Shown here one piece after another: positions 14,716 to 32,584 of a stretch of 35,108 nt of DNA (within the stretch, counting starts at the first letter, position 1; every line of letters begins with the position of its first letter). Under the pieces are notes generated by a model. The model did not search any database, was not told the DNA's origin, and saw nothing but the letters and a program-made list of their open reading frames with translations. The stretch is taken from the IMG/VR virus record IMGVR_UViG_3300020060_000009; one strand, 5' to 3'. Source of the DNA: a virus (Duplodnaviria; Heunggongvirae; Uroviricota; Caudoviricetes). The position numbers and the translations under genes were made by a program.

Positions 14716-14958
14716 TTATGCCATTATACCTTGAGACGGAACTGTCTCTTCAATATATTTAAATGCCTCAGCTCTATTTTTACACACTTTAGTGTCTGAT
14801 ATAGTACCGTGATCAATAATTACCGCCACTTGACCGGACTGTGAATAACCATTTTTACTCTTAACTAACAAATCTTGGTCATGTTTATTGCCGAACGAAT
14901 CAGCACCATACAAGATACGTCCATTGAATTTAATAACTGATTCTACTAAAGTTTTCAA
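14716..14958 (-). CDS. Hypothetical protein
   Basis: 80 aa, TTG start behind TAAGAAAGGCTT leader. Confidence 0.6.
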   Translation of the reverse strand: MKTLVESVIKFNGRILYGADSFGNKHDQDLLVKSKNGYSQSGQVAVIIDHGTISDTKVCKNRAEAFKYIEETVPSQGIMA

Positions 14959-14992
14959 AGTAAAGCCTTTCTTATGTGTTTTACTAAGTTTA

Positions 14993-15021
14993 ATTATGCT
15001 CTTAAATTGCTAAAAACACAA
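14993..15021 (-). promoter_or_regulatory. Early-type promoter TTGTGT-N17-CATAAT
   Basis: Exact motif and spacing. Confidence 0.8.
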
Positions 15022-20188: not shown

Positions 20189-20649
20189 TACGCTACCTTC
20201 TTCCATGTAAGCCATCGTAGTTTAAGGAACTCAATCTCCGCGTCTAGGCTCTTAATATTTTTCTGACATTCTCGCACTCGTTTACTAAACTCCATCCAGT
20301 ATCCTTCGCCAAAGCCCCAAGAACCTTTTTCCATTGCTTTTTTAGAGTCAAAGTTTTCAGGTCGGACGAAAGTTTCATTCTTCCCGTAACTGCTCATAGC
20401 GAAACGAGTAATAGTTGCAGGAGGATTAGCCATGTAATCTGTTTCTGCCTCAATATTATTTTGTCGATACTTTTTATAGTTCTCAACTACTTCTGGAATA
20501 CGATCACGGCTTTGCTCATAAGGAAGATACTTAGCGCCTTCACAACTAGAGGTTTGTCCCCAGCCATTACCAGGGCGTAAAAAACCATGGTGGGCTATAG
20601 TGCCAGTATTGGATTTTATCTCTCGAGCGCAAATTTGACAATGACTCAT
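20188..20649 (-). CDS. Hypothetical protein, N-terminal CQIC...HHG...C zinc-binding motif
   Basis: 153 aa ORF. Confidence 0.6.
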   Translation of the reverse strand: MSHCQICAREIKSNTGTIAHHGFLRPGNGWGQTSSCEGAKYLPYEQSRDRIPEVVENYKKYRQNNIEAETDYMANPPATITRFAMSSYGKNETFVRPENFDSKKAMEKGSWGFGEGYWMEFSKRVRECQKNIKSLDAEIEFLKLRWLTWKKVA

Positions 20650-20729
20650 TATAGCGCTCCGTTGATGACAAAGAAGAACAATACAAAAAGTACTATTCCT
20701 TCAACCAAGTTTTGTTTTTTAGTACTCAT
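20649..20729 (-). CDS. 26-aa membrane peptide
   Basis: Hand translated MSTKKQNLVEGIVLFVLFFFVINGAL; behind TAAGAAAGGCTT leader; TAATG coupling. Confidence 0.55.
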   Translation of the reverse strand: MSTKKQNLVEGIVLFVLFFFVINGAL

Positions 20730-20764
20730 TTTTCTAAAGCCTTTCTTACTGTCTTTATATTTTA

Positions 20765-20793
20765 ATTATGCTCTCTTTCATTTGAAAACACAA
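20765..20793 (-). promoter_or_regulatory. Early-type promoter TTGTGT-N17-CATAAT
   Basis: Exact motif and spacing. Confidence 0.8.
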
Positions 20794-29535: not shown

Positions 29536-29813
29536 TACTCATTCCAACTTTTCTTGAGACGAGATTGATGAGCAGTACGGCTCATGCCAGTTTGGGCTTT
29601 GGCCATACCTTCTAATTCGTTTTCCCATTCTTTATCGTCCATAAACTCTTCTTTAACAAGTCGTTTAACCTGCTTAACTTGAATTTTATACGGGCGATTA
29701 ACTGGTTCGTGGCGAACGATTGCGCTTTTGTAGCCCATAGCCTTAGCTTCTGCTAGGGTTTTTATAACTACATTTTCTATTGTTGGATATTCTACTGTTA
29801 TTTGAGTTTTCAT
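29535..29813 (-). CDS. Hypothetical protein
   Basis: 92 aa behind TAAGAAAGGCTT leader. Confidence 0.65.
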   Translation of the reverse strand: MKTQITVEYPTIENVVIKTLAEAKAMGYKSAIVRHEPVNRPYKIQVKQVKRLVKEEFMDDKEWENELEGMAKAQTGMSRTAHQSRLKKSWNE

Positions 29814-29849
29814 TTTGTATAAGCCTTTCTTATTTCACTTATACTATGA

Positions 29850-29878
29850 ATTATGCTCTCAATCGTCGCAAAACACAA
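29850..29878 (-). promoter_or_regulatory. Early-type promoter TTGTGT-N17-CATAAT
   Basis: Exact motif and spacing. Confidence 0.8.
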
Positions 29879-30461: not shown

Positions 30462-30489
30462 AAATAAAAAACACCCCGCTAAAGGTGTC
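30462..30489 (-). terminator. Intrinsic terminator of ncRNA candidate
   Basis: GACACC-loop-GGTGTT then TTTTATTT. Confidence 0.6.
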
Positions 30490-30780
30490 TTCTACTTTTC
30501 GAAGGATGGTCATCCCTCTTGAACGCGGTTGTGGGTTGGGATTCTGTTTCCAGAACTTTACCAACATGCGGACGCCCTGACTAGTTTCGAAGTAAATCTT
30601 TGCTAGGTTTTGGTAATGCGTCCGTTTAACTCCATAGGAACCTTGCCCTGCTGGTGTAACCCAGAGGTTTTCAGTTCATTGCCAACGGGCTCTTGGTTAC
30701 TTCCCGATGTGCGCTACTATTTCTAGCCTATTAGGTGCTTTAGCCGTCAGGATGCTTATTAAGCTACCACAAACGCTCAT
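30465..30780 (-). ncRNA. Candidate ~310-nt structured ncRNA with pseudoknot
   Basis: Own promoter and terminator, longest ATG ORF seen is 27 codons. Closing helix 30767-30778/30521-30534, GNRA hairpin, and crossing stems. Confidence 0.6.
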
Positions 30781-30786
30781 ATATTT

Positions 30787-30815
30787 ATGATATCACACCC
30801 TGTTCAACCTGTCTA
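30787..30815 (-). promoter_or_regulatory. Sigma70 promoter TAGACA-N17-TATCAT with TGn extension
   Basis: Hexamers and 17-bp spacing read directly. Confidence 0.65.
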
Positions 30816-30841
30816 TGATTTAATGATGTAGAATAATCTAC

Positions 30842-30929
30842 AAGGAAAGAGACACCAATTAAGGTGTCTCCTAAGAAAGGCTCGTCTAGTGATTCTCCTG
30901 CGTATTTGCGACGCATTCTACCACTACGC
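30842..30929 (-). ncRNA. Candidate ~88-nt trans-acting sRNA (hairpin - AGCCUUUCUUA seed - terminator)
   Basis: Begins at the expected +1 of promoter 30935-30963 and ends at GAGACACC/GGTGTCTC + TTTCCTT terminator. Seed is complementary to four leaders. Confidence 0.6.
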
Positions 30930-30934
30930 TTTTA

Positions 30935-30963
30935 ATTATGCTCTTTTTATTGTTAAAACACAA
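30935..30963 (-). promoter_or_regulatory. Early-type promoter TTGTGT-N17-CATAAT
   Basis: Exact motif and spacing; overlaps the ninG stop. Confidence 0.8.
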
Positions 30964-31492
30964 CCCCTTTATATAAATCTATAACCTCCCGTATATCTGC
31001 TTGACTGACCTTCTTGCCAGATCGAGCGAATTGTTTAAGCTTATCTATTTCTAAGTCTCCATAATCTCTTCTTAATAATACTTCGTATACTATTAAGTTA
31101 CCATGCTTGTCTACATTGCATTCATTACACTGCGGATGACAATTTATTTCATCCCATCTGGTCTTTAAGAATCGACGAGACATAAAATGTCCACATTGGA
31201 GTTCATCTATTGGGAATTTTCTGCCACAAGTATAACAATGATTATCGGAACCATCACTATCTCTTTGCCTAATATATAGCGAGAAGTATTTATCTGCCCA
31301 GCCTATTAGCTGGCTACGTTCAGAACTGCCCTTGTAAGCTAATCTAAGCTCGTCTGAGGGCTTCTGACGCAAAAGTGGCACATTTGTACGTTTCTGTATA
31401 AAACCGTCAGGGAGAGCCTGTTTTTCGCGTTTTGGACATTTGTTCTTGCTGTGCCAAATTGAGCTACACCATTTACATGGCTTTGGGCTCAT
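30953..31492 (-). CDS. ninG: NinG/Rap-like recombination endonuclease
   Basis: FSLYIRQRD...CYTCG...QCGHFMSR...RWDEINCHPQCNECN...GN. Confidence 0.85.
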   Translation of the reverse strand: MSPKPCKWCSSIWHSKNKCPKREKQALPDGFIQKRTNVPLLRQKPSDELRLAYKGSSERSQLIGWADKYFSLYIRQRDSDGSDNHCYTCGRKFPIDELQCGHFMSRRFLKTRWDEINCHPQCNECNVDKHGNLIVYEVLLRRDYGDLEIDKLKQFARSGKKVSQADIREVIDLYKGVVF

Positions 31493-32335: not shown

Positions 32336-32523
32336 TAGACTGTTACCTTCTGTGACAATTTGAGATAAATTTCAATGAACTCTTCCGGTGTATTGCCCAT
32401 AGGATATTCTTTATGTTCTTCACAAACATCTATCTTTGTATGTCCAGTATAACCACGGCGATAAACTGATTCAACTATCTTATTTTCTTTAAGTTTGTGG
32501 ATGTCGCAAATTGAAATTTTCAT
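32335..32523 (-). CDS. Hypothetical protein (CDIH...DVCEEH)
   Basis: 62 aa behind TAAGAAAGGCTT leader. Confidence 0.6.
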   Translation of the reverse strand: MKISICDIHKLKENKIVESVYRRGYTGHTKIDVCEEHKEYPMGNTPEEFIEIYLKLSQKVTV

Positions 32524-32555
32524 AGTAAGCCTTTCTTATTGATTTACTAAACATA

Positions 32556-32584
32556 ATTATGCTCTTTTTTACAGGAAAACACAA
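32556..32584 (-). promoter_or_regulatory. Early-type promoter TTGTGT-N17-CATAAT
   Basis: Exact motif and spacing. Confidence 0.8.

Follow-up and report, generated by a model that had tools for sequence, protein, structure and literature searches.

What is known of post-transcriptional control in virulent phages concerns proteins almost exclusively, namely RegA, RegB, gp32 and gp43 of T4 (PMC12197685, PMC3014915). RegB cuts the GGAG Shine-Dalgarno (SD) sequence of early mRNAs, and RegA occupies AU-rich start regions (PMC3014915). The phage small RNAs (sRNAs) that have been described are mostly those of temperate phages, and their action is directed at one phage target or at host genes (PMC12197685, PMC3014915). 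One of them is c4, an antisense RNA of phages P1 and P7 (Citron and Schuster 1990), which prevents translation of a phage mRNA by base-pairing with its ribosome-binding region (PMC12197685); in the account given there, c4 serves temperate-phage immunity, is processed from the very transcript that it regulates and directs two loop sequences against two sites, with the icd/ant operon as its one target. A full-text literature search returned no described virulent-phage sRNA that acts on a ribosome-site cassette common to several of the phage's own operons.

In enterobacteria, DapZ and MicL derive from a 3' UTR and are transcribed from a promoter of their own within the coding region upstream; both are host RNAs that depend on Hfq, serve host regulons and usually carry the seed near the 5' end. 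GcvB is a multi-target host sRNA with experimentally verified targets, in which one conserved single-stranded seed meets a short motif common to many translation-initiation regions. The locus described here encodes an RNA of ~88 nt that shares features with each of these. That it is an RNA gene, and that its complementarity to a set of phage leaders is conserved together with them, is solid on comparative sequence grounds; that it acts in trans, blocking the ribosome site of about six operons of its own phage, we consider somewhat more probable than not.

The stretch of DNA that was analysed (the window, 35,108 nucleotides) is the reverse complement of positions 43891-78998 in a 99,006-bp IMG/VR record, which has direct terminal repeats and a G+C content of 39.8%; nearly all genes of the window lie on the minus strand. 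The phage is apparently virulent, judging from the direct terminal repeats and from a gene content in which no lysogeny genes were seen. Its terminase is only about 27% identical to terminases of Bacteroidota phages, and blastn of the sRNA locus against GenBank phages gave no match, so that it stands without a cultured relative or host assignment. The features on which the argument turns are the following, in window coordinates.

30935..30963, minus strand: promoter of the sRNA, with the -35 box TTGTGT at 30963-30958, a 17-nt A-rich spacer and the -10 box CATAAT at 30940-30935.
30886..30929, minus strand: 5' domain, in which an outer stem (30926-30920 with 30893-30887) encloses a hairpin at 30915-30899.
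30872..30883, minus strand: seed GAGCCUUUCUUA, unpaired, complementary to the leader motif UAAGAAAGGCUU with 11 Watson-Crick pairs and 1 G-U pair.
30842..30871, minus strand: 3' hairpin and tail, with the stem 30870-30863 paired to 30856-30849, the loop UUAAUU and the tail UUUCCUU.
32521..32584, minus strand: predicted target 1, with its promoter at 32584-32556, motif at 32538-32527 and start codon ATG at 32523; cofold gain -14.2 kcal/mol.
29811..29878, minus strand: predicted target 2, with its promoter at 29878-29850, motif at 29832-29821 and start codon ATG at 29813; cofold gain -13.2 kcal/mol.
20727..20793, minus strand: predicted target 3, with its promoter at 20793-20765, motif at 20748-20737 and start codon ATG at 20729; cofold gain -15.6 kcal/mol.
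14956..15021, minus strand: predicted target 4, with its promoter at 15021-14993, motif at 14974-14963 and start codon TTG at 14958; cofold gain -14.7 kcal/mol.

The sRNA unit (window 30929-30842, minus strand) is composed of a closed 5' stem-loop, the unpaired seed, a GC-rich hairpin and a U-rich tail, and no credible gene lies behind the promoter copy at 30963-30935. Folding of 30929-30838 returned the 5' stem-loop, the unpaired seed and a 10-bp hairpin (MFE -29.7 kcal/mol, z = -2.8). The RNA probably starts near G30929. The 3' hairpin is presumed to be an intrinsic terminator shared with the upstream NinG operon, and no other terminator was found between the NinG-like gene and this hairpin. 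The U tract that follows it is interrupted (UUUCCUUGU) and weak, being nearly absent in two of the homologous loci described below, L060 and L065, and a generic terminator scan did not call the hairpin; some read-through towards the next RNA gene is therefore possible. A search of the locus against Rfam gave no match, even at E up to 10, by which membership in any Rfam family was rejected, and ARAGORN reported 0 genes for tRNA or tmRNA at the locus, by which a tRNA-like identity was rejected.

The promoter belongs to a class, TTGTGTTTT-N11-GAGCATAAT, that a generic scan did not flag and that occurs ~21 times in the 99-kb genome, on whichever strand is coding; the sRNA shares its promoter class with ~20 other copies. 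An earlier note on this DNA, made from the letters alone, had described a fifth promoter of one class that drives no open reading frame and is followed by a hairpin, a seed and a terminator. This layout holds, and the arrangement is kept in 13 of 13 loci; the class has 8 copies in the window and not five, and the terminator is one with a weak U tract. The NinG-like gene (30953-31492, minus strand; NinG family PF05766) lies directly upstream, and the -35 box of the sRNA promoter falls inside its last codons (G-V-V-F-stop, window 30953-30965, minus strand). At the same place in the 12 relatives, the NinG C-terminus Gly-Val/Leu-Val-Phe-stop overlaps the sRNA -35 box. As the last NinG codons are at the same time the -35 box, the protein C-terminus and the promoter constrain each other.

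The RNA thus has the layout of a 3'-UTR sRNA, its -35 box overlapping the last NinG codons in 13 loci and its presumed terminator being shared. Like DapZ and MicL, it has a promoter in the 3' end of the preceding gene, a shared terminator and a short conserved seed directed against ribosome-binding sites in trans, the last of these being a prediction here. It differs from them in a seed placed immediately upstream of the terminator hairpin, in a structured and variable 5' domain, and in predicted targets that are leaders of the phage's own operons.

Homologous loci were collected with the NinG-like protein as anchor. Twelve further loci were gathered from IMG/VR, NCBI, ENA and Logan assemblies, with NinG proteins 52-68% identical to that of the window, which brings the comparison to 13 loci, all from uncultured phages. 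All 13 keep the same order, namely the promoter, a variable 5' domain, a CUUUCUU seed, a spacer of 0-4 nt and a hairpin with a U-rich tail. The 5' domain measures 27-123 nt in the relatives, and its sequences are unrelated and always closed by a stem. The core CUUUCUU is invariant in all 13 loci, and the full seed 9-mer is GCCUUUCUU in 11 of them, the exceptions beginning ACC in L061 and GUC in L064; the seed is unpaired in the minimum free energy fold of 10 of the 12 homologues. Scans of IMG/VR with two patterns, one for the seed and hairpin and one for two blocks of the neighbouring RNA, returned only two relatives, both already known, and of the 16 matches in one metagenome pattern scan 15 were chance matches and one was a truncated homologue without the sRNA. 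A more distant NinG locus, L069, has no sRNA element, which makes the sRNA specific to this clade.

The stem of the 3' hairpin varies by paired substitutions (GAGACACC, GAGCCAC, GACCCCCC, GACCACC, GGGUAGCC and GAGUCG). An alignment of the seed and hairpin module by MAFFT and RNAalifold was structurally misaligned and uninformative, and was replaced by a covariance-model alignment, which recovers 10 of the 12 loci, L064 and L065 falling below threshold. Across these ten loci all 88 cells are paired (100%), as against 46-64% in controls in which the partner column was slid, and four of the nine pairs have changed on both sides; the covariation score is 0.353 compared with 0.164 for shuffled alignments, and none of 500 shuffles reaches the observed value. 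These compensatory changes, together with the self-closing variable 5' domain, bear out the RNA-gene part of the earlier proposal of a phage-encoded trans-acting sRNA, the trans action itself being carried here as a prediction. The sRNA is kept in L068 even though the large RNA adjacent to it has been replaced.

As for the leader motif, TAAGAAAGGCTT occurs exactly four times in the window, all on the minus strand (14963-14974, 20737-20748, 29821-29832 and 32527-32538), so that the identity of four leaders stated in the earlier note was found at all four places, and a copy with one mismatch, TAAGAAAGGCTC, lies on the plus strand at 30872-30883. These five matches compare with 0.35 expected, and none of 100 shuffles reaches five. 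Each minus-strand copy stands 17-20 nt after a -10 box and 3-8 nt before the start codon. Genome-wide, the exact 9-mer is found in five leaders, in the RNA gene itself and at one intragenic site. Only about a third of the promoters in the class carry the leader motif, and one such promoter heads the structural operon. Promoters of the class whose leaders have no motif include those at 30100-30072 and 8667-8639.

The four leaders in the window head the following transcription units. The operon of target 1 extends through the NinG-like gene and the sRNA itself. The first product of target 2 has 92 aa, and its N-terminus, MKTxITVEYP, is conserved in the relatives. Behind the leader at 20737 the first gene is a 26-aa hydrophobic peptide (20729-20649) and not the 153-aa open reading frame; the peptide (window 20649-20729, minus strand) begins MSTKKQNLVEG and continues as a stretch rich in Phe, Val and Leu, and the stop codon at its end and the start codon of the 153-aa gene overlap (TAATG). 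The operon headed by target 4 extends to the terminase and portal genes, and the label "early", which the earlier note had given to all four, is therefore an assumption. Neither Pfam nor PHROGs gave a match to the first gene of any of the four target operons.

The same association is seen in the relatives. In each of the 12 phages examined, AAGAAAGGC is retained in leaders close to a promoter, of which there are 33 altogether and 5-7 per near-complete genome, and L068 has two more motif leaders beyond these 33. In two partial relative genomes 8 and 9 copies of AAGAAAGGC were counted, against 1 and 3 for a reversed control pattern. Nearly all copies in the relatives follow a promoter of this class and are closely followed by a start codon, and some precede orthologous genes, for example those whose products begin MKTxITVEYP and MNEPVHIDEND. 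Co-conservation of the seed and the leader motif in related phages had been named in the earlier note as a check, and the seed is indeed kept wherever the leaders are (13 loci, 33 leaders).

Two further observations concern the leaders. Outside the window, at ~1458 and ~326 of G000, two more leaders that follow promoters of this class differ from the motif by a single letter (AAGGAAGGCTC and GAGAAAGGCTT); these would pair slightly less well with the seed and may represent graded targets. The motif leaders themselves (32549-32521, 29843-29811, 20758-20727 and 14986-14956, minus strand) can fold so that UAAGAAAGG is placed in the loop of a short 5'-terminal hairpin, the stems of which differ in sequence yet remain complementary (UAUAAG/CUUAUA, UAGUAA/UUACUA, UAAAG/CUUUA, UAGC/GCUA and UGUAA/UUACA). 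The longest helix measures 4.6 bp against 3.2 for shuffled and 3.65 for cross-leader combinations, with marginal stabilities of -0.1 to -3.6 kcal/mol; the stems covary somewhat, and the hairpin is a weak feature.

The seed was said in the earlier note to pair with all four leaders, by 11 Watson-Crick pairs and 1 G-U pair across the SD sequence, and this pairing was recovered. When each RNA is paired with the leaders of its own phage, duplexes of 10-13 bp are predicted with a mean of -16.5 kcal/mol, compared with -5.5 kcal/mol for shuffled seeds, and only 0.06% of seed shuffles reach the observed mean duplex energy. Cofolding of the full-length RNA with the four window leaders yields a net gain of -13 to -16 kcal/mol against -1 to -10 kcal/mol for seven control start regions, with the intermolecular helix the same as that predicted for the seed and stacked on the 3' hairpin. 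A genome-wide RNAduplex scan at a loose energy cut-off recovered mostly bulged chance duplexes and gave no discrimination. The variant seeds keep the pairing: in L064 (GUC) a G-U wobble is retained and the other end is extended by four A-U pairs, in L061 (ACC) one terminal pair is lost and two are gained at the opposite end, and in the L010 phage CUAAG faces CUUAG. Lineage-specific co-evolution of seed and leader was rejected as a line of evidence, own-phage duplexes being only 0.7 kcal/mol better than cross-phage duplexes, which is no usable signal. Since both the motif and the seed hardly vary, true covariation between the two is slight, and the evidence is one of co-conservation.

It is very unlikely that the only conserved unpaired stretch of the RNA is by chance a 9-nt complement of the most conserved leader motif, the probability being estimated at ~1e-5 (4^-9 times a few registers). 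The AAGAAAGG share of the complementarity would be expected anyway if the motif is an SD sequence for a 16S tail CCUUUCU and the seed resembles that tail. The complementarity exceeds, however, what an SD match to 16S rRNA needs, since the leader has GGCU(U) where a 16S match wants GGAGG, and the seed supplies (G)AGCC.

Some of these features could also be accounted for without an sRNA that acts on leaders in trans. No terminator parts the NinG-like gene from the element, so that transcripts of the operon must enter it, and the leader of that operon itself carries the motif; the element could hence be the 3' UTR of the upstream operon (promoter 32584-32556), pairing with the leader motif at the 5' end of the same mRNA and silencing its first gene, with the internal promoter secondary. 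Its likeness to the 5'-3' UTR pairing of the icaR type is the pairing of leader and 3' end within one molecule. We hold such a cis role as the main function to be improbable, given that a promoter of the standard class is kept before the element in 13 of 13 loci, at the cost of fixing the last NinG residues, and that each genome has at least five other leaders with this motif, on transcripts distinct from that of the operon. The cis and trans readings can coexist: with the promoter in the NinG 3' end and the terminator shared, the mRNA of the upstream operon also has the anti-motif at its 3' end, and a cis variant is thus compatible with an RNA acting in trans. The 16S rRNA offers a different partner. 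CCUUUCU is the 16S 3' end of many bacteria, and the seed core CCUUUCU equals that tail. The RNA could then mimic the tail, either as a broad competitor for host and phage SD sequences, AAAGG, AAGG and AGGA being common before phage starts, or as a decoy that diverts a tail-binding or tail-cleaving factor, and the match to the leaders would be a by-product. We give this little weight, since the complementarity runs past any SD/anti-SD match (GGCU(U) against GGAGG) and AGAAAGG or longer is found in only 3-5 of 153 crude start regions, so that a broad effect would have to rest on 5-nt matches.

The existence of an independent sRNA may be questioned as well. Weak U tracts, all but missing from L060 and L065, and a conserved structured RNA within ~60 nt in 12 of the 13 loci would suit a leader or attenuator with a second promoter for that downstream RNA, or a mere operon terminator. 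U-rich tracts before terminator hairpins are Hfq-binding modules, and the U-rich tract could in such a case be a chaperone or protein module. This seems unlikely: in every locus the RNA downstream is preceded by a conserved extended -10 promoter of its own, L068 has swapped that RNA for an unrelated one while the sRNA stays, and a chaperone site needs no exact 9-11-nt complement of the most conserved leader motif, for which the chance is ~1e-5. The window also holds two open reading frames from which a small protein could come, one of 43 aa on the minus strand (30916-30785) and one of 31 codons on the plus strand, starting with a GTG (from 30889) 8 nt after the GG of the motif, for which the earlier note had considered that the motif might serve as the ribosome-binding site. 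That role fails, as the 31-codon frame is unconserved in 12 loci, and both frames were rejected on comparison of these loci, where the starts are absent or shifted, the lengths range over 0-39 codons and the peptides are unrelated on either strand. Insertions of up to ~100 nt occur within the region; the plus-strand frame is antisense to the promoter and to the NinG 3' end, and no plus-strand promoter was seen for it. The occasional GTG after the plus-strand motif is the complement of CAC in the closing stem of the 5' domain. A coding function is, in sum, scarcely credible.

We therefore return to an sRNA acting in trans, for which the following course of events is proposed. Transcription of the sRNA would begin at a sigma-70-type promoter of its own, which lies within the 3' end of the NinG-like gene, and would stop at the hairpin that also closes the NinG operon, while the structured 5' domain, free to evolve in sequence, may serve as a stabilising cap. 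The single-stranded seed of 9-12 nt, (G)AGCCUUUCUUA, would pair with the SD-containing motif UAAGAAAGGCU(U) near the 5' ends of about six mRNAs made from the same promoter class, of which the window has four and the rest of the genome two or three. This duplex of 10-13 bp would cover the ribosome-binding site, so that the 30S subunit could not load and the first gene would be down-regulated; the genes downstream may follow through coupling or mRNA decay. A stable RNA accumulating against short-lived messages would give delayed negative feedback, which is the natural dynamic to infer where a regulator is made from the same class of promoter as its targets. What we infer from the features described above comprises transcription of the RNA, the position of its ends, the pairing in vivo, the direction of the effect (repression) and the timing.

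The predicted system has partial counterparts among those mentioned at the outset. Like c4 as described (PMC12197685), it is phage-encoded, exposes a short complement to a phage ribosome-binding region and uses structure to present the pairing bases. It differs in coming from an apparently virulent phage, in having its own promoter and one linear seed, and in being directed, by prediction, at a leader cassette on about six operons. A comparison with c4 showed no sequence similarity and no Rfam match; it would thus resemble c4 in its mode of action without belonging to the family. With RegB and RegA of T4 it would share a coordinated post-transcriptional shut-down through a common feature of translation initiation, but those are proteins whereas the reader here would be an RNA, and the analogy is functional only. 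With GcvB it shares a single conserved unpaired seed matched to a short motif of many translation-initiation regions, although GcvB is a host RNA with verified targets and the targets here are predicted.

The wider proposition is that a virulent phage runs a self-directed RNA regulon, in which one sRNA made from a standard promoter reads the ribosome-site cassette of about six leaders, that of a packaging and structural operon included, and sets their translation jointly. We put this tentatively, at a little short of an even chance. If true, it would be a simple example of one-to-many RNA control in a lytic programme, and it would explain why an 11-nt leader motif is invariant across phages whose proteins are only about 55-68% identical. 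A seed of 10-12 nt and a portable leader of 30 nt would also make a compact, orthogonal translational switch.

Directly downstream of the sRNA lies a structured non-coding RNA of ~310 nt (window 30465-30815, minus strand; L009 4650-5010; L010 4640-4965). It has its own conserved extended -10 promoter (TGnTAnnAT), a strong terminator, a helix that closes the 5' and 3' ends, and hairpins with GNRA caps and compensatory changes. Twelve of the 13 loci contain it, as does one truncated metagenome contig (L054), and it gave no Rfam match even at E up to 10. In L068 (2990-3330) the slot is taken by an unrelated non-coding unit of ~250-300 nt, likewise without a match in Rfam, which has its own TATAAT-type promoter and terminator; this replacement makes the position look like an exchangeable cassette. 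Just past the sRNA hairpin there is a 16-nt palindrome, TGTAGA-TTAT-TCTACA (window 30827-30842, minus strand), and the relatives have a TCTACA or TACTACA box at the palindrome site, with the -10 box of the following RNA gene ~40 nt downstream.
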